This document shows, one piece after another, positions 2 to 43,787 of a DNA stretch of 56,702 nt. The stretch lies in sequence record NC_024146.1; one strand, given 5' to 3'. The stretch is from Enterobacteria phage 9g. Position 1 is the stretch's first letter, and each line of letters begins with the position of its first letter. The position numbers and the translations under genes are program-made. A model generated the notes under the pieces. That model was not told the DNA's origin and ran no database searches. It saw only the letters and a list, made by a program, of their open reading frames with translations.

Positions 2-36
2 GTGGGCCAGTACAAATGTATTGGCCCACTTTTTAT
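2..36 (+). terminator. Rho-independent terminator-like hairpin at the window start
   Basis: gtgggcca(2-9) / tggcccac(22-29), 8-bp stem, 12-nt loop, then TTTTTATT. Would close the plus-strand late operon if the window ends are joined; abuts the polymerase stop codon at 36. Confidence 0.45.
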
Positions 37-2009
37 TAAGCGGCGTATGCGAGTTTTTCCAGCAATTTTTCCGCTTTAGCTATGTACACTTCGTGGTTAA
101 GATCTGGCGGTAACTGATCAGTCAGTTCCATCATTGGTTTACCCCCTGCTGTCTTACCAACACGCCCACCACTCTTAACTATCAGTATTTCAGGTACTTC
201 TTCTTTTGTATAGTACCAGCGAACAACCTTACCTAACGGCTCACTATTCCACGCAGCTCCACCGTTAGCTGTCTTGATACAAACAAACTTACGAATATCC
301 TGACACTCTGTGATAGTTTTAGCAATTGGTGTACCGTCACGGAGAAGATTAACCACAGCATCCATAATGATTTCACCTTCTGCGTTTTTAGCAAGGCCTG
401 TCTCAGCGAACCAACCTTTACGCTTGGCTTTACCATCTGCCTTGATTGCGACGTAGTTGTTAACGTTTGCGGAGTTAAGGCGCAGGTACTGGTTCAACTC
501 CATTTCAAAGCCAGTTGTTTCTTCCCACCACTTAATGATATCTGTCATTAATTGCTTCTTAGCTTTGCAAGGCTTAATAACAATACCGTCCGTGTTAGCA
601 CTGACAACCTGAATACCGTTAAGCTCTAGTGTTTCAATAAGCATGAGCAGAGCTAACTGACCTGTGAGCGTAGTCTGAATAATAAGGTGCGGTGCATACA
701 GAATAGAGAACGGTGAACCGAACTTACCATAAGAACCGTTAATAACGATCTTAAGAGTTTGTGCGGTCTTATCGTCATGAGCCATCTTAGCTGCAATACG
801 TCGTTCTACGATCTTAACGAAGATATCTATAAAGCGCGGGCCCAGGTGCTCAGGATACAGTTGCTGGTTAATGATACAGATCGGGTAGTATGACGTTACG
901 TCAGCGTCCCACATCTCTTCATCTTCAGACGGTACAATCTCCATTAACTCTTCGCACGAGTGCAGACCACCGATACCCATGTTGTAAGTTGTCTGATTGA
1001 TTGTAAACTTCAAAGAGTTCATGGTTGATGGTTGCTTAATTTTACCGTCTTCTGCAACTCGGAAGTAACTATCAAGCACAACCTGAAATACGGACTTCAT
1101 TAGTGGCGTTTGGAAACCTAACCACACTGGAGGATTGTACTTAAAGGTTCTGCCAACTTCCACCATACCCTTCTGTGGTACGAAGCCCAGCATTTCCTTC
1201 ATTTCATGGCGGATTACAGCTTCTGCGATCTGTGCATCGGATTTAGAGCGAAGGTCTACTTTGTACTCCTCACTCATAATCTCACGTAGATGGATCTGCT
1301 CTTCCAGTGAGTTAAACAGAGCCATTGTTGTATCAAGGTCGTTAATGCAGTAGAAGCGCACAATAGCAATTTGTTCTACGGATAACGCCCAATGTGGTGG
1401 GAATGGTAAGTCCTGGAGCTTCTGCATGTGCATACGGCCGCCATACAACTTCAACGAACCGAAGCCAGGAGCCACCTCTTGAACGTCAATGTGGTCAATC
1501 CAAAACTGTTTTACACCAAAGCTGTTAAGAATGTCCCACGGAGCCCACTCTTCCTGGATCATCCTGTCACTTGCTTCTTTTAGCTTGTCAACAGTCAAAC
1601 CAGCAATGGCAAGGAATGTCATCGTATTATCGTAGTTTCTTGAGTTGAAACCAACGGTACGAAAGTTCTTCATTATCCATTCATATTTTTCCGTGTCAAG
1701 TGTCTGACCGGCAGTCATTTCTAGATAATAAACCTTGCCAAACTTAACCCCTTTAAACGCCACAAGAAAATAGTTCTTATAGCATTCTATATCGTATACG
1801 AACGTTTCTTGTGCAAAATACATTTCCACTAATTCACCGTCTGTCATACGCGGATCGTTAGCTGCAAAACGCATTGCTACATCAAGACCTGGAAGGTAGT
1901 CCGGACGCTCCCATACCCTTTCAACTGGTTGACGTTTTACTTTCTGTTTCTTTTCTTTCTTAGTGGGAGGTAAATCCTCCCAAAAGAAACCAATAGCATC
2001 TTTTCTCAT
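36..2009 (-). CDS. DNA polymerase, family B-like, with 3'-5' exonuclease motifs
   Basis: 657 aa. Exo I-like YDIECY; PolB motif A DVTSYYPICII (DxxSLYPS type); motif B KIVINGSYGKFG (KxxxNSxYG type); motif C-like SANTDG. ATG at 2009 overlaps the stop of the upstream gene (ATGA). Confidence 0.85.
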   Translation of the reverse strand: MRKDAIGFFWEDLPPTKKEKKQKVKRQPVERVWERPDYLPGLDVAMRFAANDPRMTDGELVEMYFAQETFVYDIECYKNYFLVAFKGVKFGKVYYLEMTAGQTLDTEKYEWIMKNFRTVGFNSRNYDNTMTFLAIAGLTVDKLKEASDRMIQEEWAPWDILNSFGVKQFWIDHIDVQEVAPGFGSLKLYGGRMHMQKLQDLPFPPHWALSVEQIAIVRFYCINDLDTTMALFNSLEEQIHLREIMSEEYKVDLRSKSDAQIAEAVIRHEMKEMLGFVPQKGMVEVGRTFKYNPPVWLGFQTPLMKSVFQVVLDSYFRVAEDGKIKQPSTMNSLKFTINQTTYNMGIGGLHSCEELMEIVPSEDEEMWDADVTSYYPICIINQQLYPEHLGPRFIDIFVKIVERRIAAKMAHDDKTAQTLKIVINGSYGKFGSPFSILYAPHLIIQTTLTGQLALLMLIETLELNGIQVVSANTDGIVIKPCKAKKQLMTDIIKWWEETTGFEMELNQYLRLNSANVNNYVAIKADGKAKRKGWFAETGLAKNAEGEIIMDAVVNLLRDGTPIAKTITECQDIRKFVCIKTANGGAAWNSEPLGKVVRWYYTKEEVPEILIVKSGGRVGKTAGGKPMMELTDQLPPDLNHEVYIAKAEKLLEKLAYAA

Positions 2010-2998
2010 AGACGAAATCCTACAATTACCCCACGTAGATTTTCACCATAAAAAATAATAGGAGTTGAAAGACCCCTTTCGTCCTTTTCATTGAAACGCG
2101 AAGCATCCCAATCTGTCGCAAGTCCTTTCAACTGCATAATGAGATCTATATTATACACGCCAATTGACTTAGATTCACGGAACATTGCACTAGCACCATC
2201 CAGCTCGTTGTAATGTGTGCGTACAACACCATTTTCCATGTAAATACGCCCATCCCGCTCACAGAACGGTTTTATCTTTTCTAAGCAATTAAAAAGCTCA
2301 GTATCAAGCGTATAGACGTTGGCCCCATTTTCTGTACGCTCAATTATCTTATCAATGTTAGGCCACTTTAATTCCAGCAATTGTGTACGCAACCAGCAAC
2401 CGTCTTCGTAGTGAAATGTCATACTGGTATCTGTACATTGAATTCTTACTGGTGGCTTTTTAATACGCAATAATTCTTTGATGGCCATACGTGGCACAAC
2501 ACAATCTACAGGGAATACAGCACCGAACCAATACTGTATAATACTAGCGTTGTTGGTCGCGTACATGCTGCCCTGTTTTACCAGCACGCCGCAAGACCAC
2601 GGGCGGGAAGCATCGTCGCTTATAAACGGCGTTACACGGCTTAAACCGTTGAGAAAAAGCTGACCGTCTATTTCGTGAATTGTTCCTTCTGGCTCTACGT
2701 GTGCAGTTGGTTTCTGAAGAGTATCCACACTGACCTTAAAGCCACCAGACTTAATGCTCAACTTACCATTCGCTAACATTGTCATCTGTACAGCTTCGTC
2801 ACATGCTGCAATAGCCTTGAGCATTGGTTCAGCTTTAGGAGTACAGTCAATATTTAGTGGTACTGGACTACATAATGAAATAGTTCCGTTAAACCCGCGC
2901 ACAGTACCATCAACAATACGGAAGTGAGTTAAACCTTCCTGAAGTTCTTTCTTAGCTACAGAACCCTGAACAAACTTTAAAGCATCAAGTAAATCCAT
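2006..2998 (-). CDS. Putative beta-sliding-clamp-like processivity factor
   Basis: 330 aa. Motif layout resembles DnaN: N-terminal L..ALKFVQGSV, then GKLSIKSGGFKVSVDTL (cf. DnaN ...RSGRSRFSLSTL) and ATNNASII (cf. ATDGHRLA). Translationally coupled to the polymerase. Call is from remembered motif pattern, not a search. Confidence 0.45.
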   Translation of the reverse strand: MDLLDALKFVQGSVAKKELQEGLTHFRIVDGTVRGFNGTISLCSPVPLNIDCTPKAEPMLKAIAACDEAVQMTMLANGKLSIKSGGFKVSVDTLQKPTAHVEPEGTIHEIDGQLFLNGLSRVTPFISDDASRPWSCGVLVKQGSMYATNNASIIQYWFGAVFPVDCVVPRMAIKELLRIKKPPVRIQCTDTSMTFHYEDGCWLRTQLLELKWPNIDKIIERTENGANVYTLDTELFNCLEKIKPFCERDGRIYMENGVVRTHYNELDGASAMFRESKSIGVYNIDLIMQLKGLATDWDASRFNEKDERGLSTPIIFYGENLRGVIVGFRL

Positions 2999-3006
2999 AA
3001 GTAACC

Positions 3007-3960
3007 TTATTCGTCAAATAAATCCTGGAGACGTTCGTTGAACTTCCCATTGTGGTTAGCAAGAATCATAGCGTTGACCACACCATACGCCCATAAATTG
3101 TATGCAGCGCGTGATTCGTATATGGTTGAAAGTCGTTCGTATGTGAAACCTGACTCCTCTAAGTAGCGCAGAACATTATTCTGTTCTATTTCTGAAAGAT
3201 TACAGATGTGCTGCCCTTGATAGTGGCGTGACGGTGACTTTTCAGATACCTGCATTGGGCCCCACTTAGGAGTTTCAATAGCACCAAACGCCGCAGATTG
3301 AATCCAGGAGGATGAGTCACAGGAGTACCACGGGTAACGCTCCATAAGCGGGCGGGACGTAATACCAAAACCATGAACTTTAATCTTAGCGCGTCCACTA
3401 CCGTCCACAAGGTGCTTATCCCATACCCTGTCCAACCATACCTGAAGTTGTTGTGTACTCGCTCCAACAAGACCACCGAGCGTGATATACTCATAGTTTC
3501 GCACATAATGGTCCAGGTATTCAAAAGGTTCACCGGCGTGGAAGCATGGTAAAGGTCTTACACCTCTGGCTTCCATCTCTTCCTGGTTGCGCCACGTTTG
3601 AAGTGGATCACCAATACCATCGAGTACAGAAGCCATAAGCGAACCATCTTCCACACGGATGATATCTATGTTTCGTTGGATGTAATCACAGTATTCTTTA
3701 ACCGATAACGTAACTCCCAAAGTGTAAGCTGAGAACGCTCCGGAGTCGAGGAATATCTTGGCCCCATCGGCACGCATGGCATCAACATAGGATTGCTTTC
3801 CAACGTAGTGCCAGGATTCGAGAATGTTTGGAATATTTTCGACAACACGTTTTTCTTGTTCGTTGAGTTTGACATAGCGGTTCATTCCTGGTTTATAGCT
3901 GTTCGTATATACGGCAGCCATATAAATCTGAAAGGTATAGTTGATATCTTGTCTGTGCAT
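3007..3960 (-). CDS. dpdA: DpdA-like DNA-guanine transglycosylase (TGT superfamily) for 7-deazaguanine insertion into DNA
   Basis: 317 aa. TGT-like IFLDSGAFSAY (cf. TDSGGFQ) and overall TGT-like length; sits at the 3' end of the folE-queD-queC-queE operon. ATG at 3960 preceded by GGTGA. Confidence 0.75.
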   Translation of the reverse strand: MHRQDINYTFQIYMAAVYTNSYKPGMNRYVKLNEQEKRVVENIPNILESWHYVGKQSYVDAMRADGAKIFLDSGAFSAYTLGVTLSVKEYCDYIQRNIDIIRVEDGSLMASVLDGIGDPLQTWRNQEEMEARGVRPLPCFHAGEPFEYLDHYVRNYEYITLGGLVGASTQQLQVWLDRVWDKHLVDGSGRAKIKVHGFGITSRPLMERYPWYSCDSSSWIQSAAFGAIETPKWGPMQVSEKSPSRHYQGQHICNLSEIEQNNVLRYLEESGFTYERLSTIYESRAAYNLWAYGVVNAMILANHNGKFNERLQDLFDE

Positions 3961-4029: not shown

Positions 4030-4644
4030 TTACTTTTTACACGCTTCAAGAAATTCCCGACGCCATGTGTCACCAGTCACGTCCGGTAATACACCATCAC
4101 CCAATGCAGTACGTCCGCGGAATGCTTTAGTGATGGTTGAGCTTCCGCATACCTGTTTAACACCGCGCGACTCCATGCACATATGTTTTGCATCGATGTA
4201 GACACACACAGCTTTCGGGTCTAAGTGTTCCACGATAGCATCCGCAATCTGATTAGTCAGACGTTCTTGGACTTGCAAACGTCGAGCGAAAGCATCAACT
4301 ACCCGAGATAACTTGCTGAGACCGACGATTTTTCCATTTGGGACATACCCAACCACTGCATGACCAATAATAGGAGCCATGTGATGCTCACAATGACTAT
4401 ATACAGGGATATCACGGACGATGACCATTTCATCACAGTTTTCCCCACCATCTTCAAATGTCTTGAACAGGGATGCGATATCAACAGAATAACCCCCGAA
4501 CCATGTAGCATAAGCCTTAGCTACACGATCTGGAGTTTCTACTAGACCTTCACGCAAGTCATCGCCACCTTCAATCAACTTTAAAATCTTTTCAATACTG
4601 TGCGAAATTTCTGCTCTGTTTGTCATCTTTGTAAATTCATTCAT
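4030..4644 (-). CDS. folE: GTP cyclohydrolase I (FolE)
   Basis: Clear FolE core: ETPDRVAKAY, VIVRDIPVYSHCEHHMAPI, GLSKLSRVVDAFARRLQVQERLT. The longest ORF begins with TTG at 4680 and overlaps queD; the ATG at 4644 with an upstream AAGGA is preferred (4626 is an alternative). Confidence 0.88.
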   Translation of the reverse strand: MNEFTKMTNRAEISHSIEKILKLIEGGDDLREGLVETPDRVAKAYATWFGGYSVDIASLFKTFEDGGENCDEMVIVRDIPVYSHCEHHMAPIIGHAVVGYVPNGKIVGLSKLSRVVDAFARRLQVQERLTNQIADAIVEHLDPKAVCVYIDAKHMCMESRGVKQVCGSSTITKAFRGRTALGDGVLPDVTGDTWRREFLEACKK

Positions 4645-4670
4645 GGTTTGCAGTTTCCTTGTGTGGTCAA

Positions 4671-5204
4671 TTATTTGCAATAGTTAACATGGCATTTGGA
4701 CGTTTCTTCAATGGTGCATTCTACCAATTCAACACCATATTGGTCAAGTAGTTGAGGACCAATTACGTCAACCATATATGCAGCTAAGTTTTCCGCAGTT
4801 GGGTTGAATGGTAAAGCTACCAAAGAATTAAAGAAAGGATCGTAATCTTCATCCGTCACTAAATTGTTCTCACGTGCAAACTTAGTTGATGCAACAACAA
4901 TGAGCGAATTAATCATGCTGTCTTGTTCCCAATGCAGGAACTTATGATCCCAATTATCTTCCAACCACTGGCAGAGCGTAGTTTTAACCACACTAAAGTC
5001 GATAACCCGACCTACGTCGTCCAGCGAACCTTCTAGAGCAAATCCACTTACAGACTTAACGTAACCTTCCGACAATGTTTTCTTTGGTGCAACTTTAAAA
5101 TGGAACTTATAGTTGTGACCATGAAGATGACGACATTTGCTTTCATGCCCTACAACACGATGCCCAGCGCAAATCTCATGTGAACGAATAACAGTGTAAC
5201 CCAT
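4671..5204 (-). CDS. queD: 6-carboxy-5,6,7,8-tetrahydropterin synthase (QueD / PTPS family)
   Basis: 177 aa. N-terminal CAGHRVVGHESKCRHLHGHNYKF (Cx..HGH zinc/catalytic motif of QueD/PTPS). Confidence 0.85.
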   Translation of the reverse strand: MGYTVIRSHEICAGHRVVGHESKCRHLHGHNYKFHFKVAPKKTLSEGYVKSVSGFALEGSLDDVGRVIDFSVVKTTLCQWLEDNWDHKFLHWEQDSMINSLIVVASTKFARENNLVTDEDYDPFFNSLVALPFNPTAENLAAYMVDVIGPQLLDQYGVELVECTIEETSKCHVNYCK

Positions 5205-5206
5205 TT

Positions 5207-6622
5207 TTATTCCTCGTTTTCGTATTTAATAACTTCTTGTGCGTTATTAATATTAAACGCAGTCCGGCGCATCATGCAAGGGCCGCAAGTACCGCAATGC
5301 AAATTCCCGTTACGGTAACAACTCCAGGTGTGCTCCAACGGGGCCCCTAAACGCAGACCTGTAGCGACAATTTCGTGCTTCATTAAGTTACCTACAGGCA
5401 TGAGCACTTCAACGCGCTTACCATCCCCTACAGCGAACGGTAACACCTGATTAAAGCGATTAATAAACTCAGGTTCGTTGTCCGGATAGGCTCCAGCTTC
5501 TTCTAGGTTGTTACCAAGAACAATATAGTCGAAACCGTTAGCTTCTGCGTATGCAGTAGCAACAGAAAGCATCACAAGGTTACGAGCTGGAACCCATTCA
5601 TGCGCAAACTCAGCGCCTTCTTCACCGCCAGCGATTGCAGCATCTTGATCAAATAATGGGCTATCCTTCTTATCATAAATTGGGATTGGAAATTCAATTA
5701 ATGGAACCCCCATCACTTCCGCAATCTTACGAATAGCATACAGCTCATTAGTTTCTGCACGACAACCATATTGGAAGTTAATCAGAGTAACATCTAAACC
5801 ATTGGACTTACACATTTGAGCTGCTACTGTGCTGTCCATACCACCACTGGCGACAACTAACGCGCGTTGAGTCTGCTTATTTGGAATAAGATCAACTTCA
5901 TTGCATACATCAGTTGATGTAACCACATTACATGAATAAGGCTTCAGCATCTGCTTAATAGCGCGGTTGGGTAGCATGTCTTCCTGGCTGGCGAAATACA
6001 TACCAGTATCAGTCTTACCAATCCAGATTGGACGATAATTACATGCTGTAAACACGCATCCCGGAAAGGAATCATGTGTTGCAAGGATTGCGAAGCTACC
6101 TTTCAATTTGCGAACAACTTCATGAAACACACTGTACAGGTAATTAAAGTCAGACAAACACATTTCATCTGCTGAAAGTGTACATTCTGCTAACTGTTCG
6201 ACAATCGCAGCACTATCAATCTTAGTCTGCAGGGCATAGGTACGAATGTCTTTATCGTTCGCAATAGTACCGTTATGAACAATAGTCCAATCATCCATGT
6301 GATACGGTTGCTGGTCCCACTCATTCTTGTCAACAATCCACTCTGTAGTCGGTTCAGCGCGAGCGTTACCAATCATTGTGAAGCTACCAATAGCTCCAGC
6401 ATGAGATGCAATGCGCCCAACTTTAACAAGACGTTCCAGTGACGTTTCCTTACCGACACTAACGATACGTTGCGGGTGCATACTGTGGTCACCATGCGTA
6501 AAGCGTACACCAAGACCATCACGACCACGCTTGATACTGGCTTTAATAAGATCCTCAATGTCGTTACGGATAATAAGACTTTCAGGTTGACCGTTAGTAA
6601 TAACACCAAAGATAGAGCACAT
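5207..6622 (-). CDS. queC: Gat-QueC fusion: class II (Ntn) glutamine amidotransferase domain fused to a QueC-like 7-cyano-7-deazaguanine synthase domain
   Basis: N-terminus after the start Met is CSIFGV (Cys2 nucleophile, as in AsnB/GlmS-type GATases). C-terminal half has the PP-loop SGGMDS, VPARN, and the zinc motif CGTCGPC of QueC. Start set to the internal ATG at 6620-6622 so that Cys is residue 2; it lies 1 nt after the upstream gene's stop. Confidence 0.85.
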   Translation of the reverse strand: MCSIFGVITNGQPESLIIRNDIEDLIKASIKRGRDGLGVRFTHGDHSMHPQRIVSVGKETSLERLVKVGRIASHAGAIGSFTMIGNARAEPTTEWIVDKNEWDQQPYHMDDWTIVHNGTIANDKDIRTYALQTKIDSAAIVEQLAECTLSADEMCLSDFNYLYSVFHEVVRKLKGSFAILATHDSFPGCVFTACNYRPIWIGKTDTGMYFASQEDMLPNRAIKQMLKPYSCNVVTSTDVCNEVDLIPNKQTQRALVVASGGMDSTVAAQMCKSNGLDVTLINFQYGCRAETNELYAIRKIAEVMGVPLIEFPIPIYDKKDSPLFDQDAAIAGGEEGAEFAHEWVPARNLVMLSVATAYAEANGFDYIVLGNNLEEAGAYPDNEPEFINRFNQVLPFAVGDGKRVEVLMPVGNLMKHEIVATGLRLGAPLEHTWSCYRNGNLHCGTCGPCMMRRTAFNINNAQEVIKYENEE

Positions 6623-6623
6623 A

Positions 6624-7385
6624 TTATTTACCTTCCTTAACCATTTCAATTTCACGCTCAACGGATGCAATAATATCGTTGAGGTCTTCCAGTACGTCTT
6701 TATGACCGCGCTCACCCGCACACAGCACCTTCTTCAGTGCATGTTGCATGGGCCCACTGGTTACATTGAATGCTTTAATTACGTCGTACACGTCAACCCA
6801 TACATCAATTTCGATTGGGCTACCGTTAATGTCATGGGATTCAAAAGTTTTAATTTTGCGCATATATTTATTTGGACGTGGAGCTTTAATCTCCTGGATA
6901 CAACCATTGTCGATAAACGTTTCTTTAATGAATACTTCAGGATTGCCTTCTTTGTCATGATCAACGTTAAAGACATTCGTAAGTAGATCGTCCATGATAC
7001 TTGTTAATTTATGAGTAGACGTTGTGTACTTCATGGTATTCGCTTCCGCTTCCTCTGCTGCTTTCTGACTTCTTCTGGCAGAAGTATTGATACGCCATTT
7101 GTAGAGTGCATTACGTGGAGGTGTTACATGCGTGTTGTAGACCGTCTTTAAGTTCATAAGATCGTGTCCATCCATACCTTCAACAAAGACAGTGAGTGCA
7201 GGACAACTATCGTTCAGAACATCCACCAAATATCCTTCCCGAATTACAGATGCAAGAGCTGCATGTGACGCAGCTTGAGAAACTGTGGTTACATAATGTT
7301 TCACAAATCCGTCTTCATCAAACAGACACTGGTTCAACACATTTTCTGGAACAATTTCACCGAGTAATTGAACGTACTTATTCAT
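6624..7385 (-). CDS. Hypothetical protein embedded in the 7-deazaguanine operon
   Basis: 253 aa, ATG at 7385 with AAGGT upstream; tightly packed between queE and gat-queC. No motif recognised by eye. Confidence 0.6.
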   Translation of the reverse strand: MNKYVQLLGEIVPENVLNQCLFDEDGFVKHYVTTVSQAASHAALASVIREGYLVDVLNDSCPALTVFVEGMDGHDLMNLKTVYNTHVTPPRNALYKWRINTSARRSQKAAEEAEANTMKYTTSTHKLTSIMDDLLTNVFNVDHDKEGNPEVFIKETFIDNGCIQEIKAPRPNKYMRKIKTFESHDINGSPIEIDVWVDVYDVIKAFNVTSGPMQHALKKVLCAGERGHKDVLEDLNDIIASVEREIEMVKEGK

Positions 7386-7447
7386 AATGATTTACCTTAT
7401 CAGTTGAACATACCATGTCTTCCAGCGTGTTTTGAATATGTATAACT

Positions 7448-8212
7448 TCACTCTACGCCTAAATATTTATGAATCTGCAATTGCACGATGTAATTGTGCT
7501 TCATTGCATATTTAACGACAGCTTGAGCGTTTGCTTTATTAGCATCGTCGTCCTGTTCATCCATAGGTTGAAGATAAATTTTACCTTTAAAGTGTACAGG
7601 TGGACGTGCGATAAATGGTGTCGCACGGTGATCCAGTGCCTGCAACGGTAATCCATCTTCCTCGTTGACGTTTCCGCTTTTCATTACATATTTGAAAGCA
7701 TCCGCTCGAGCGGAAACGCTAGGGTGGACCTTTGCTGCCTTAGGACTACATACTACCACACAGTTATAGTTGAGTTCACGCGGGATAGGCATAGTTCCGT
7801 TAGTTTCAACCTGTACACGATAACCTTTCATATCAATGAGGTAATTGATAAAATTAGCAACTTCAGGTTGACGGAAAGGTTCGCCGCCCGTAATGACAAC
7901 TAAGTCAGTCTTGGCTTCACCAGTGACACGGACAATCTCTTGCCAAATGTCACCGTGATTCATCTTCTTACGATTGGACGTATAGTTTGTATCACATCCT
8001 GGGCATTGCAAATTACAACCAGCTAATCGAACAAACACGGCAGGTTGACCACAAAATGGGCCTTCGCCTTGAATGGTATGAAAAATGGAATGCACGTCAA
8101 GAATACCACGTTCACGAACTAACTTCTCAGGTTCCTGAGTATTAATAATTTTCATATGATTTCCAAATTTGGCTTGAGCCCAGTGGTGGGCGATAATGGC
8201 TTGTGCAAACAT
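7448..8212 (-). CDS. queE: 7-carboxy-7-deazaguanine synthase (QueE), radical SAM
   Basis: IFHTIQGEGPFCGQPAVFVRLAGCNLQCPGCDT carries the QueE N-terminal signature and the CxxxCxxC radical-SAM cluster. The longest ORF starts with TTG at 8236; the ATG at 8212 preceded by GAGGT is preferred (8155 is an alternative). Confidence 0.85.
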   Translation of the reverse strand: MFAQAIIAHHWAQAKFGNHMKIINTQEPEKLVRERGILDVHSIFHTIQGEGPFCGQPAVFVRLAGCNLQCPGCDTNYTSNRKKMNHGDIWQEIVRVTGEAKTDLVVITGGEPFRQPEVANFINYLIDMKGYRVQVETNGTMPIPRELNYNCVVVCSPKAAKVHPSVSARADAFKYVMKSGNVNEEDGLPLQALDHRATPFIARPPVHFKGKIYLQPMDEQDDDANKANAQAVVKYAMKHNYIVQLQIHKYLGVE

Positions 8213-8280
8213 TTGAACCTCGGGGTAAGATAACAAAGGGGCAGTAAATGCCCCTTCTGAGTTTCCGAAGTATCTACAGA

Positions 8281-9105
8281 TTACTCTGCAGTTTTCTGAG
8301 ACGGAATTTCTACGTTAGCGGCCGCTTGTGCAATATTAGCAGGTACTGGAACGGATACGCGACCAGTAATGCCCATGTATTTCTTCCAGCGAGCGTATTC
8401 CGCTTTGACGTTCGCTTCGTTCAGGCCTTTGTCCAGTGCAACAGGCAGAACGTAGCTGATCGGCGCAGTCTGACCGAGCTCCAGGGTCACAGCGTCAAAG
8501 ATATCCCATGCAGCACGGCACAGAGTACCGACACCTGGCTTGCGAATACCGTTCTGTTCAGGCTCTTTCTTAGCTTCGCGTTCTGCTGCTTTACGAGCAC
8601 GCTCTTCGTCCTGCAGACGTTTCTTCTCAGCGCGTTGTGCGTCACGTTGCGCTTTTTCAGCGGCCTTAGTGGCTTCGCGGGCAGCGGATACACGACCTTT
8701 AACATCTTTCAGAGTGGATTCAATGGAGGAAACCAGATCTTCAGATGCTGCAACGGCAGTTTTCAGCTGATCGTTGTCTTTAACTTTACGTGCTGCCGCT
8801 TTAACAGCTTTCAGACCTTCTTTAGCGGTCTTCAGTTGAGCGGTAACTACGCCTTCAACTGCTTTAACTTCGTCCAGCAATGAACCTTCGTTCAGGGTCG
8901 CGAACTGTTCTTTAACAGCGGACACAGCACCTTCGATCACATTGTAACCGGCAGTGGCTTCGTTCAATGCGGCGTCAACTTTAGCCTGCAATTCACGTGC
9001 TGCTTTTTCTTCAGCTTCACGTTTTTTCTTTGCTTCAGCTTCTTTTGCTGCTTTCTTTGCTGCTTCTTCTGCTTCCAGTTGTTCTGGAGTTTTCTCTTTA
9101 GCCAT
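8281..9105 (-). CDS. Hypothetical coiled-coil protein (Ala/Glu/Lys-rich)
   Basis: 274 aa, ATG at 9105 with GAGGAT upstream; N-terminal ~190 aa are a low-complexity helical A/E/K repeat. Confidence 0.6.
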   Translation of the reverse strand: MAKEKTPEQLEAEEAAKKAAKEAEAKKKREAEEKAARELQAKVDAALNEATAGYNVIEGAVSAVKEQFATLNEGSLLDEVKAVEGVVTAQLKTAKEGLKAVKAAARKVKDNDQLKTAVAASEDLVSSIESTLKDVKGRVSAAREATKAAEKAQRDAQRAEKKRLQDEERARKAAEREAKKEPEQNGIRKPGVGTLCRAAWDIFDAVTLELGQTAPISYVLPVALDKGLNEANVKAEYARWKKYMGITGRVSVPVPANIAQAAANVEIPSQKTAE

Positions 9106-9201: not shown

Positions 9202-9924
9202 TTAATTTAAGCCACGTTCTTTTACCCAGACCCCTAATGTATTACTTGATGTATTACGCTTCACACCTTGTGCCTCTAAACGATCCATCATTTGTTTTCT
9301 AAGCTGTAGGATTTCCTTCTTGTCACGAGGTTCACCAGCTTCTTTCCACATTTCGTCAGCAATAACGAAAATAATATCGCGAGTGCCGGCTGTACGCAAC
9401 GTTGCGGCACGTTTTTCGTTTGTCGGTGTGCTAGTACCTTGCCGCTCCCTTGTCGGTGTCCATGCCCCTTGTATGCCCATATTTGTTTGTACGGTTGGGC
9501 CGTCAATGATGGTGGATTCCAATGAACTATCATTCCGTACTTGAATATTAGGCTCCTCCCCCAAATCTGGAACAGAGCTGCCTTCGCGGTACATGCACTC
9601 ACCCTCTTTATTACTAGCAATTGCCCAGTCCGCTTGTTCAGCCACATCCGCATCTATCACTGTCTCCGGTATTTCATTTAAAAAGTAATGGATGATCTTA
9701 CTGATCATTTTCTTTGGATATAAAGCACCTTGCTTATTACCCGTTAAGTTGATATACAAAAGTTGCATTTGCACATCATCAAACTCTTTATACAGTTCTT
9801 CAACTTCTAACGGAAGAACTACAGAACTTTCGCTACAGCATAGAATTCCATACTCATGAAGACGTTGGAAGTTTGGATGCTTGGCTAATACCTGCATCCG
9901 ATCATAATCAATTAAGACGTACAT
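9202..9924 (-). CDS. Hypothetical protein
   Basis: 240 aa, ATG at 9924 with GGAAGGA upstream. Confidence 0.6.
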   Translation of the reverse strand: MYVLIDYDRMQVLAKHPNFQRLHEYGILCCSESSVVLPLEVEELYKEFDDVQMQLLYINLTGNKQGALYPKKMISKIIHYFLNEIPETVIDADVAEQADWAIASNKEGECMYREGSSVPDLGEEPNIQVRNDSSLESTIIDGPTVQTNMGIQGAWTPTRERQGTSTPTNEKRAATLRTAGTRDIIFVIADEMWKEAGEPRDKKEILQLRKQMMDRLEAQGVKRNTSSNTLGVWVKERGLN

Positions 9925-9944: not shown

Positions 9945-11948
9945 TTAAAACGGAATGTCGTCATCAAAATCTGGTGGTAGTTCTTTACCGTTACCAGTAA
10001 GAATAGGTTGATTAGACGTAGAATGCAATACCGTCGTACGGGAATCAGTCTGCTCATCTTCATCAAACTTATTCGTATAACTGCTACCAAACTGGGACAG
10101 ACCATTCATTGCTGCAATTTGTACAACCGGACGTTCGTTTGTTGCTTCTTTCTTACCGAATTCACTACCATCATAACAACTATTCAACACTTCAGGGAAC
10201 TTACCCTTCAAGTTGACATAAATGTGCGTCGGTACACGAAGCTGGCTGACCACATTGAGGGCTTCATCAATGTTAGCTGGGATTGCCAGGCTACAATGCT
10301 CACGCCACCAGTTACGCGCTTTCTTGCCCGCAAAGCCAGTATGGAACAAGCAGATGTATTGTTGGATAGTTTGTGAGCCACAAAGATAGTCGACACGAAG
10401 TGTTGGTGGTTTAGAACGGTCACCCCTGTTCTCGTGGCGGTAGTAACTCACCATATCAACTTTCAACACTTCAGTAACTGGTAAATCATTCTTGATAATA
10501 GCTTTCGTACTAGCACTCGCCATTAGTTTCTTCTCAAAAGTAAACTCATGACCGCAATAACCAGCACGGCACGCTTTATTATTTGTAATGGTATAACCTG
10601 ATCCTTGCAGATAGAGTATTTCTTCATGCGACATACTGCTTGTGTCGAATGGTTTTAACCCACCACAGAAGCGAACTGACGCATGGTTCCATGTTTTACA
10701 TATTGGGCATTCCTTAACAGGTGCAGCGGATTTTCCTTTCTGCCCTGGGCGCTTAGGAATAACAGGGTCATTAATAGGCCCAAGGCGTCTTGTGTTACCT
10801 GCATAATCCAATACAAGACAGTTCTGTTTATGCGAAGCGGAGATAGCTTGCAAACGACCCTCCGTTGTGGTCAAATCAAAACCATCTGCATAATCAGGTC
10901 GTGTACCACGTCCAAGCATCTGAACCCACAAACGGGAAGATTGAGATGGTCGCATACCAATTATCAAATCAAGTCCCGGATGGTCAAAGCCTGTCGTTAA
11001 TACGTTGTTGTTTGCTATTGCCTGTAAACGACCAGCTTTAAAATCAATAAGATACTGGTCACGCAAGGCTTTAGGTGTGTCACCAGTTACAACTTCACAA
11101 CTAATACCGCGCTCGTTGAGGTAGTCTTTAACATCTTTTGCATGGTCTACACCAGCACAAAAGACAAGCCAACTCATTCTATTCTCTTCTTCCGCAATAC
11201 TAATTGCATCATCTAATAAATGGCGAGTTACATCAGGATCGTTTACAACCTTTTGAAGCTCACTTTCAATGAACTCACCGCCTCGAGTATGAACACCACT
11301 TACATCATACTCTTTCTTTGTTTTACGTGGTACTAACGGAACAAGATAACCTTCATCAATGAACCAGTTGAAGCACTCTACGGTACACGCGTTAAATACG
11401 ATTTCATCAAATAGAGCGTTAGGCGCATAATCATCTTTGATAATAGAACCAAAACCAAGACGCCAACTCGTAGCAGTAAGACCGATGATCTTTAGATATG
11501 GATTCTTTTCGCGAATGTGCGCAAAGAACTTCTGATAACTTGTTTGCTGATTTGGACTAATAAGGTCACATTCGTCAACTATAATAATATCAACGTCCTC
11601 AAAGTATTTAGCTTGTTTTGCAACAGACTGAATACCCGCGAACGTTATCATTGCATTCTTATCTTTGCGACCCATACCAGCACTGTAAATACCAGTCGGT
11701 GCTTCAGGCCACAACTTCTTAAATTTATCGTGGTTCTGGTCTATCAATTCTTTTACGTGAGTAATTACCATCATGCGGGTACTACCCCAATTATCGTGAA
11801 TTGTCTTTAATAGACCAGCAATTACAAGGGACTTACCAGTCCCTGTAGGCAACAAGATAACAGGATTTCCTGACTTTTCACCATGCTTGATGAAATAGCG
11901 CAATGTACTGTTTACAGCTTCTTGCTGATAATCACGTAGTTTGAACAT
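9945..11948 (-). CDS. Superfamily-2 DNA helicase (DEAD/DEAH-like) with C-terminal zinc-ribbon-like region
   Basis: 667 aa. DYQQEAV (Q motif), Walker A LLPTGTGKS, DExD-like IIVDECD, LTATSWR (motif III-like); CPICK...C near the C-terminus. Confidence 0.8.
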   Translation of the reverse strand: MFKLRDYQQEAVNSTLRYFIKHGEKSGNPVILLPTGTGKSLVIAGLLKTIHDNWGSTRMMVITHVKELIDQNHDKFKKLWPEAPTGIYSAGMGRKDKNAMITFAGIQSVAKQAKYFEDVDIIIVDECDLISPNQQTSYQKFFAHIREKNPYLKIIGLTATSWRLGFGSIIKDDYAPNALFDEIVFNACTVECFNWFIDEGYLVPLVPRKTKKEYDVSGVHTRGGEFIESELQKVVNDPDVTRHLLDDAISIAEEENRMSWLVFCAGVDHAKDVKDYLNERGISCEVVTGDTPKALRDQYLIDFKAGRLQAIANNNVLTTGFDHPGLDLIIGMRPSQSSRLWVQMLGRGTRPDYADGFDLTTTEGRLQAISASHKQNCLVLDYAGNTRRLGPINDPVIPKRPGQKGKSAAPVKECPICKTWNHASVRFCGGLKPFDTSSMSHEEILYLQGSGYTITNNKACRAGYCGHEFTFEKKLMASASTKAIIKNDLPVTEVLKVDMVSYYRHENRGDRSKPPTLRVDYLCGSQTIQQYICLFHTGFAGKKARNWWREHCSLAIPANIDEALNVVSQLRVPTHIYVNLKGKFPEVLNSCYDGSEFGKKEATNERPVVQIAAMNGLSQFGSSYTNKFDEDEQTDSRTTVLHSTSNQPILTGNGKELPPDFDDDIPF

Positions 11949-43358: not shown

Positions 43359-43787
43359 ATGTCTTCAGAAAACAAACAAGTATCTACTGAAGTTGCAAAG
43401 AAAGCTGTTGGTACATCTTTCCGTGACTTTAACTTGAAAAAGAAATTAGAGAACGCTCCGCTGCTGCATTACCCGCTTGTTTTTCCAGGGCAGGGCGATA
43501 CAGGTCACTGGCTGAAGATTCGCAACCGCCACAGCGAAGAATTTCGTCAAGCGGATTTAAAAGCACAACGTCAGATCAGTGCGCTTGTCGTTGCCAACGG
43601 ATCTTTTGAAAACATTGATAAGGACATGCTCGACGATATCAATATGCGAGCGTTCTGTAAGTTGGTTGCTTCGTGGAGCTTCGAAGAAGAATGCAACGAA
43701 GACAATCTTCTTGAATTCTTTGATAATAACCCGTTTGCGTATGACGACATCAATCGTCTGGCAGCGCAAGATTCCCTTTTTTTCTAA
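43359..43787 (+). CDS. Tail assembly chaperone (gpG-like)
   Basis: 142 aa, immediately upstream of the tape-measure gene; ends ...QDSLFF* at a T_TTT_TTC slippery heptamer. Confidence 0.65.
   Translation: MSSENKQVSTEVAKKAVGTSFRDFNLKKKLENAPLLHYPLVFPGQGDTGHWLKIRNRHSEEFRQADLKAQRQISALVVANGSFENIDKDMLDDINMRAFCKLVASWSFEEECNEDNLLEFFDNNPFAYDDINRLAAQDSLFF

Follow-up and report, generated by a model that had tools for sequence, protein, structure and literature searches.

A diverged DnaN-type sliding clamp beside the DNA polymerase of phage 9g and its candidate peptide clients

Enterobacteria phage 9g carries, within the 56,702-nucleotide stretch analysed here (record NC_024146.1, hereafter the window), an open reading frame (ORF) of 330 amino acids (aa) at positions 2006..2998 of the minus strand, lying between the gene of a family-B DNA polymerase and that of a DNA-modifying enzyme. 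What does this ORF encode, and which enzymes does its product serve? A first-pass annotation took it for a beta-clamp-like gene translationally coupled to the polymerase gene, called such a pairing unusual, and supposed that the clamp may give the phage replisome its own processivity or couple it to the modification enzymes encoded just upstream. We find that the product is probably a sliding clamp for the polymerase, being a diverged homologue of bacterial DnaN (beta). The pairing is not unusual, and the coupling to modification gains comparative support, as described below.

The ORF starts with ATG and is found as annotated in the ORF list of the window, which corresponds to a Nonagvirus (9g-like, Queuovirinae) coliphage genome with the gene order of JenK1. 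The DNA of the clamp gene is 95-97% identical to that of 16 phage records, and the protein is 95-100% identical within Nonagvirus. A protein search returned 568 homologues at E ≤ 1e-3, and 37 columns are invariant over 36 clamp sequences with identity down to 44%, so the ORF is not a chance one.

Family models, profile searches and the predicted fold agree on a DnaN homologue whose gene overlaps that of a family-B polymerase. A hidden Markov model (HMM) search aligns residues 2-330 with positions 11-365 of the 368 in the profile of PHROG 947, 'DNA polymerase processivity factor' (E 2.5e-82). Unrelated families gave no confident match, and the dnaN model TIGR00663 is matched at E 1.1e-5. Against PDB, a single-sequence phmmer search gives one marginal beta-clamp match (E 0.042), and a profile of the 36-member family gives beta clamps only (E 6.5e-6 to 3.5e-5). 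The hhalign probability for the clamp versus E. coli DnaN is 88-92%. The two peptides that had been read as a DnaN-like motif layout, GKLSIKSGGFKVSVDTL at aa 78-94 and ATNNASII at aa 147-154, fall in the profile alignment on the matching segments of E. coli DnaN, ERMLVRSGRSRFSLSTL in domain I and the ATDGHRL motif, respectively.

Structure prediction and comparison with DnaN and PCNA, which the first-pass annotation had proposed as a check, show the clamp fold. The AlphaFold2 model (predicted local distance difference test score, pLDDT, 92.5; predicted template modelling score, pTM, 0.86) contains the clamp beta-alpha-beta pattern repeated three times. When the model is compared with PDB by Foldseek, the best 50 matches listed are all DnaN, with template modelling (TM) scores of 0.71-0.78 and E from 6e-20 to 3.5e-18, over some 370 aligned columns at about 15% identity; 8XLA and 6E8E are among the matches. 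E. coli beta (7AZC, 3Q4J) shares the three-domain fold with the 9g clamp over about 370 columns at a TM score of 0.76-0.78. Unlike E. coli beta, the 9g clamp is phage-borne, has 330 rather than 366 aa, and comes without a dedicated loader among the genes searched.

Several results weigh against a plain assignment as a beta clamp. The Pfam scan of the clamp returns no family at E ≤ 1, including PF00712, PF02767 and PF02768, and the TIGR00663 score of 24.6 bits is far under the cut-off of 137.65. Moreover, ring closure, dimerisation and DNA encirclement are extrapolated from a single-chain prediction. As the protein fails the Pfam and TIGR00663 thresholds, it is described here as a homologue of cellular DnaN, not an orthologue or equivalog, and function is not transferred automatically.

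Residues R152, T172 and P242 of the E. coli beta peptide-binding pocket correspond to R132, T148 and P213 of the 9g clamp, and all three are invariant in the family alignment. I218 takes the place of V247 of E. coli beta, and opposite the C-terminal strand V360-L366 of beta (VVMPMRL) the 9g clamp has VIVGFRL, with a family consensus of IIGMR, so that the MR(L) strand also has its equivalent. Judged from these alignments, the domain II-III hydrophobic peptide pocket is kept in the phage clamp.

A clamp of the PCNA or gp45 type, which is a two-domain trimer, was considered and ruled out; the protomer has three domains, and neither PCNA nor gp45 is among the best 50 PDB matches. The clamp gp45 of phage T4 is loaded by phage-encoded gp44/62, and in T4 or RB69 the family-B polymerase gp43 is tethered to gp45 by a short C-terminal peptide. 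The 9g clamp resembles T4 gp45 in being phage-encoded and paired with a phage family-B polymerase, although tethering is a proposal in 9g, and it differs from gp45 and PCNA in its three-domain protomer, its DnaN fold matches and the lack of a loader gene among those searched. Most likely, the 9g clamp forms a head-to-tail homodimeric ring, as the modelled three-domain protomer fits a dimer.

The gene downstream of the clamp (36..2009, minus strand, 657 aa) encodes a family-B DNA polymerase, as the first-pass annotation had it. Its product belongs to PHROG 1252 (E 1.8e-228) and matches the NCBIfam Pol II/PolB models at E 1e-9 to 1e-11. It also matches Sulfolobus PolB1 (1S5J) over the palm, residues 413-535, at E 1.5e-8, with NTDG aligned to GDTD; the Pfam PolB models give sub-threshold scores.

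At the extreme N-terminus of this polymerase, residues 2-12 (RKDAIGFFWED; 1974..2006, minus strand) make a candidate clamp-binding peptide, which is followed by a Lys/Pro-rich linker. Conservation of the peptide was counted over 78 loci having a complete clamp gene and downstream sequence. A scan of viral contigs for the clamp gave 214 loci, and gene order was compared in 80 viral-contig loci with clamp identity from 100% to 39%. The motif R.[DP]..G[FLMI][FW]W occurs at the polymerase start in all 78, the consensus being M(A)-R-x-D-[AS]-[ILV]-G-[LFM]-F-W-x-D. The D at +10 lies outside the search pattern and is kept in 64 of the 66 unique sequences. Among the 74 non-nested ORFs of the window, only PolB fits the pattern. 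In the Stenotrophomonas phage Salva, whose clamp is 35% identical, the polymerase starts with MGLFWDE, a shortened form of the peptide.

The peptide persists even where the polymerase behind it is of another family. In seven loci and phages (L043, L048, L069, L073, L074, L080 and VpKK5), the downstream enzyme has no PolB match at E ≤ 1e-5. In the three of them that were scanned, L043, L069 and VpKK5, it matches Pfam DNA_pol_A (E 1e-57 to 1e-68) and is thus of family A, and the enzymes of L048, L073, L074 and L080 have the size and conserved C-terminus of those three. Coordinates of such family-A-type polymerases downstream of the clamp are 7138-9174 in L043, 7393-9438 in L048, 7650-9698 in L069, 6948-8960 in L080 and 6880-8916 in L086 (VpKK5), and those of L073 and L074 start from about 6951. 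All seven loci without PolB keep the same N-terminal peptide. The family-A enzymes keep an N-terminal module of about 45 aa, consisting of MRxDxxGxFWxD, a basic linker and PPxPxxxWxxPxY. This distribution suggests that the N-terminal module has been shuffled between polymerase families A and B. Within the module, a second conserved element, PPE(R/P)xW(E/L)xPDYLP, follows the Lys/Pro-rich linker (PolB residues ~16-42; 1884..1965, minus strand); it is common to PolA- and PolB-type enzymes.

Because the peptide is kept after replacement of the catalytic body, and beside a clamp gene, it is best read as a clamp tether, a role proposed here from motif conservation. Its core, xLGLF, has four-fifths identity to the C-terminus of E. 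coli Pol II, QLGLF. Both E. coli Pol II and 9g PolB are family-B enzymes with a short terminal peptide of the xLGLF type, but in 9g the motif stands at the N-terminus and has an additional Trp (G[LF]FW), while that of Pol II is C-terminal. The polymerase motif is without the Q that canonical clamp-binding motifs, QL[SD]LF or QLxLxL, have. The C-terminus of the polymerase (…LEKLAYAA in 9g, …[IL]GY in the family) was also considered as a clamp-binding site and set aside, as variable tails follow it and it is missing from the family-A polymerases.

Clamp and polymerase genes of 9g overlap, as first reported. The plus strand reads tcat at 2006-2009, which is ATGA on the minus strand, with the clamp stop TGA at 2008..2006 and the polymerase start ATG at 2009..2007, overlapping by 4 nucleotides (nt). 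An AGGA element resembling a Shine-Dalgarno sequence lies about 9 nt upstream of the polymerase ATG, within the 3′ end of the clamp gene. From the ATGA overlap only, we infer that translation of the two genes may be coupled. Among the 78 loci, the clamp stop and the polymerase start overlap by 1, 4 or 11 nt in 44, the gap is 30 nt or less in 4, and it is 50-1163 nt in 30. Since these 30 loci have inserted sequence, ATGA coupling would be common but dispensable. The gaps of 50-1163 nt (L005 6993-7546 and 29 others) contain extra sequence, in places whole small ORFs.

The clamp/PolB pairing turned out not to be unusual. By tblastn, the clamp is found in 319 of 50,697 phage records, including Pseudomonas, Escherichia, Stenotrophomonas, Vibrio, Xanthomonas, Rhizobium and other phages, and the labels on these records are often 'processivity factor', 'replicative clamp' or 'DNA polymerase III beta subunit'. 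In RefSeq, the counterparts in related phages go under the name 'DNA polymerase processivity factor'. The RefSeq and PHROG 947 proteins, such as those of JenK1 (gp30), CAjan, Vid5 (ORF30), NP1 and PaMx25, are of the same family as the 9g clamp. The pair was also published in 2018 for Vid5 (PMC6266253), in which polB and, after it, a gene for a DnaN-like beta subunit (100% by HHpred to 3T0P) stand beside the tgt/que cluster. The clamp gene itself is thus already known and routinely annotated. Between 9g and the PHROG 947 group, which comprises Queuovirinae and related siphophages, the order dpdA-clamp-polB is the same and no substantive difference was found.

Gene order indicates which partner is the primary one. 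In every locus with sequence there, a polymerase lies downstream of the clamp. Upstream, dpdA is found in 78 of the 80 loci; of the remaining two, one is cut off upstream and the other (L069) is without dpdA. Clamp and polymerase occur without dpdA in L069, Salva, Halfdan and PaMx42, with 4-6 kb inspected upstream of the clamp. Because the clamp family is wider than DpdA, the polymerase would be its primary partner, and DpdA an added client within one lineage.

How could such a clamp get onto DNA? No homologue of an AAA+ clamp loader was found by PHROG search of 10 replication-module ORFs, by Pfam search of 10 more, which included all early-region unknowns longer than 130 aa, or in the RefSeq annotation of JenK1. 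Sak4 was considered as a loader and rejected, being an AAA_24 RecA-like annealing protein. With no recognisable phage loader, loading of the ring is probably left to the DnaX complex of the host.

A possible route to the host loader is found at the end of the superfamily 2 (SF2) DNA helicase (9945..11948, minus strand, PHROG 16). The helicase ends with PPDFDDDIPF, and its last eight residues, DFDDDIPF (nt 9948-9971), repeat the C-terminal tip of E. coli SSB (MDFDDDIPF) without a change. Many proteins of the host dock on the SSB tip, among them the clamp-loader subunit chi. JenK1, L069 and Salva have helicases with this same DFDDDIPF tip. The helicase of Pseudomonas phage PaMx42 is without the tip, and there it is the clamp that ends like the SSB tip, SDDPYSDDIPF, making the distribution complementary to that of the 9g-type phages. 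The PaMx42 clamp (L095 3875-5014) is a 23% identical homologue with a Lys/Arg-rich N-terminal extension. We propose from these tips that phage replisomes having a clamp but no loader may borrow the host loader through an SSB-tip mimic on the helicase.

The lack of a phage loader in these searches could also be taken to mean that the clamp-fold protein is a host-takeover decoy, which titrates the host clamp loader or beta-binding proteins and so stops host replication. The strong divergence from cellular DnaN would suit a decoy, and the SSB-tip mimic of the helicase could likewise compete for host factors. However, the position of the gene and its overlap with the polymerase gene are tightly conserved, the polymerase keeps its terminal peptide, the pocket is conserved for peptide clients, and the gene lies in the replication module, not in an early host-takeover region. 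We consider a decoy highly improbable and return to the clamp as a processivity factor.

The gene upstream of the clamp bears on the suggestion that the clamp is coupled to modification. It encodes DpdA, the DNA 7-deazaguanine transglycosylase (3007..3960, minus strand, 317 aa; PHROG 887, E 2e-98), which in related phages goes under the names queuine tRNA-ribosyltransferase, 7-deazaguanosine inserting enzyme or DpdA. The dpdA stop is 8 nt upstream of the clamp start. No solved structure of a DpdA homologue came up in a sequence search of PDB. What 9g DpdA does was established by Hutinet et al. 2019 (PMC6884629), and DpdA acts post-replicatively (PMC10516641).

The C-terminus of DpdA resembles a beta-binding motif. 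In 9g it reads RLQDLFDE, with residues 311-317 (LQDLFDE; 3010..3030, minus strand) as the candidate clamp-binding motif, and the family ends with [VI]-Q-[EQG]-L-F-COOH. In 57 unique DpdA tails, L is invariant, F is kept in 55, Q in 43 and E in 41, whereas the 12 preceding positions show about 3 bits of entropy and vary in length. Among the 74 non-nested ORFs of the window, the C-terminal pattern is found in DpdA and one structural-module ORF only. That ORF (142 aa, 43359..43787, plus strand) ends with AQDSLFF, probably by chance or as an unrelated assembly motif. As to the features expected of clamp-binding motifs, the DpdA and PolB peptides have the terminal position, the flanking variability and the L-F pair.

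Similar tails occur on remote DpdAs encoded no more than about 2 kb from a DnaN-like gene. They are QGLFV in BcepGomr, QRLF in RHEph06, QPGLF in VpKK5, QSLW in the Edwardsiella myovirus ZHS (DpdA 36% identical) and QRRLF in Dp-1, a pneumococcal phage with a Gram-positive host (DpdA 28% identical). The DpdAs of Rosebush, Typha, Mufasa8 and Megan have no QxLF tail, and no clamp gene was found in the 3-5 kb inspected around them. A ParB-like gene adjoins DpdA in Rosebush, Typha and Mufasa8, and none does in Megan. Coordinates of tail-less DpdA loci are 1-1946 in L089 (Rosebush), 202-2050 in L091 (Typha), 3019-4549 in L092 (Mufasa8) and 2893-4067 in L090 (phiSM). In phiSM, DpdA adjoins a ParB-like gene, and the ParB-like protein ends with SVNLF. 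This pattern may mean that the DNA-tracking partner differs from one DpdA lineage to another.

On the other hand, a number of observations call for caution about DpdA as a clamp client. The DpdA of phiSM is tail-less despite a processivity-factor gene 2.5 kb downstream. In most DpdA tails, Q is three residues before F (Q-E-L-F), unlike the canonical pentamer Q-L-x-L-F, and the canonical Q spacing is found only in VpKK5 and Dp-1. When the clamp was fused through a 30-residue Gly/Ser linker to the last 30 aa of DpdA and modelled by AlphaFold2 with a paired 24-sequence alignment, the tail reached a pLDDT of 53/52/56, with 33-38 for the linker, a level too low to speak of confident docking. Common ancestry within the DpdA1 lineage partly confounds the co-occurrence of tail and clamp, and the tail-less controls are called clamp-free on the basis of the inspected 3-5 kb. 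Finally, 9g dpdA with gat-queC modifies 18 ± 10% of plasmid G in E. coli (PMC6884629), where the phage clamp is missing, so DpdA can be active without that clamp. Host beta might stand in for it there, DpdA might need no clamp at all, or its tail might count only for timing and coverage in the course of infection.

Weighing both sides, the coupling of the clamp to the upstream modification enzymes, as first supposed, has gained comparative support in the conserved DpdA C-terminus that resembles a clamp-binding motif, but the link to the clamp is our own extrapolation from it. That DpdA is a genuine clamp client is possible yet somewhat doubtful. Clamp-tethered enzymes of modification and repair are known, such as DNMT1 with PCNA in eukaryotes and MutS/MutL with beta in bacteria. 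DpdA would be like them in concept as a post-replicative enzyme recruited by a clamp-binding peptide, proposed here from sequence. It is unlike them in that it exchanges bases rather than methylating or repairing DNA, and in the atypical spacing of its QELF motif.

Neither the DpdA-clamp link nor the terminal motifs are mentioned in the papers on these phages that were searched, and a full-text search for DpdA and clamp gave nothing relevant, although this absence is no proof of novelty. The main deazaguanine-phage papers searched leave the clamp itself unmentioned, and one of them places the modification genes "next to the polymerase genes". A search for phage DnaN and clamp-binding motifs gave only papers on host beta, for example with phage Mu.

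Given how regularly dpdA lies directly upstream, the clamp might instead be mainly an accessory of DpdA, a DNA-tracking platform analogous to a ParB-like partner, and not a processivity factor of the polymerase. It would fit that DpdAs without a nearby clamp adjoin ParB-like genes instead. Yet clamp and polymerase are found together in the loci with no dpdA in the 4-6 kb inspected upstream of the clamp, clamp records outnumber those of DpdA (319 versus 243; in Pseudomonas phages, 98 versus 32), and the polymerase is always downstream of the clamp and has a more conserved peptide than DpdA. The chance of a mere DpdA accessory is close to negligible.

A more serious competitor is the host clamp. 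The terminal motifs of PolB and DpdA could target E. coli beta, with the phage clamp being an extra clamp pool or a heterologous partner of host factors. The motifs do resemble host beta-binding motifs, as in Pol II, 9g DpdA reaches the modification level given above with host beta alone, and host machinery would be engaged anyway if no phage loader exists. But the motifs track the phage-encoded clamp across Streptococcus, Rhizobium, Vibrio and Pseudomonas hosts, they sit in genes flanking the phage clamp gene, and the invariant pocket residues of the phage clamp imply peptide clients of its own. Targeting of host beta is therefore considered unlikely.

We thus prefer the phage clamp as the target, and its working could be as follows. 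The leftward operon is dpdA-(8 nt)-clamp-(4-nt overlap)-polB, and with one operon and the overlap, clamp and polymerase would be made together. The clamp would serve mainly to make the replicative polymerase of the phage processive. This enzyme would be tethered through its extreme N-terminal peptide, MRKDAIGFFWED, on the flexible Lys/Pro-rich linker, and the peptide would insert into the hydrophobic pocket between domains II and III, in the way E. coli Pol II does with its C-terminal QLGLF. DpdA may be the second client, its beta-binding-like C-terminus then placing guanine-to-deazaguanine exchange on freshly replicated phage DNA. The host DnaX complex would load the ring, perhaps recruited by the DFDDDIPF of the helicase. 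Only tentatively do we go as far as a two-client hub, in which the clamp holds the polymerase by the G[LF]FW peptide and DpdA by the Q[ED]LF tail, and insertion of 7-deazaguanine (G+/preQ0) is coupled to the fork.

The surroundings of the three genes are those of a modification and replication module. From the ORF list and the annotation of syntenic JenK1, genes of preQ0/G+ biosynthesis extend upstream of dpdA in the same direction (4030..8236, minus strand): FolE (4030..4680), QueD (4671..5204), Gat-QueC (5207..6721), a 253-aa protein of unassigned function (6624..7385) and QueE (7448..8236). Beyond the que genes, further upstream, lie those of the helicase, Cas4 nuclease, SSB, Sak4, ligase, RNase H and primase. 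In or beside this que/replication module, three conserved proteins of 240-274 aa have no Pfam match (6624..7385, 8281..9105 and 9202..9924, all minus strand). One of them is PHROG 7864, of unknown function, and the 274-aa protein is rich in Lys, Glu and Ala and resembles a coiled coil.

With the clamp gene itself known, what remains of interest is three leads, namely the portable PolA/PolB tether, the DpdA tail and the helicase SSB-tip mimic, all of them proposals. Carried by interchangeable family-A and family-B polymerases, the N-terminal peptide would be a clear case of a clamp-binding module that is portable. The helicase tip suggests how a phage with a clamp but no loader gets its clamp onto DNA. 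If DpdA does dock on the clamp, it would be the first viral enzyme of DNA hypermodification tethered to a clamp, and this would explain why the clamp-linked DpdA1 modifies up to about 30% of G, compared with less than 0.1% for the ParB-linked DpdA2 or bDpdA. A clamp-docking tail on DpdA offers a simple hypothesis for genome-wide coverage within one infection cycle, a question that the papers searched do not address. The polymerase peptide, the DpdA tail and the helicase tip may also be relevant to engineering or inhibiting Queuovirinae phages in therapy collections.

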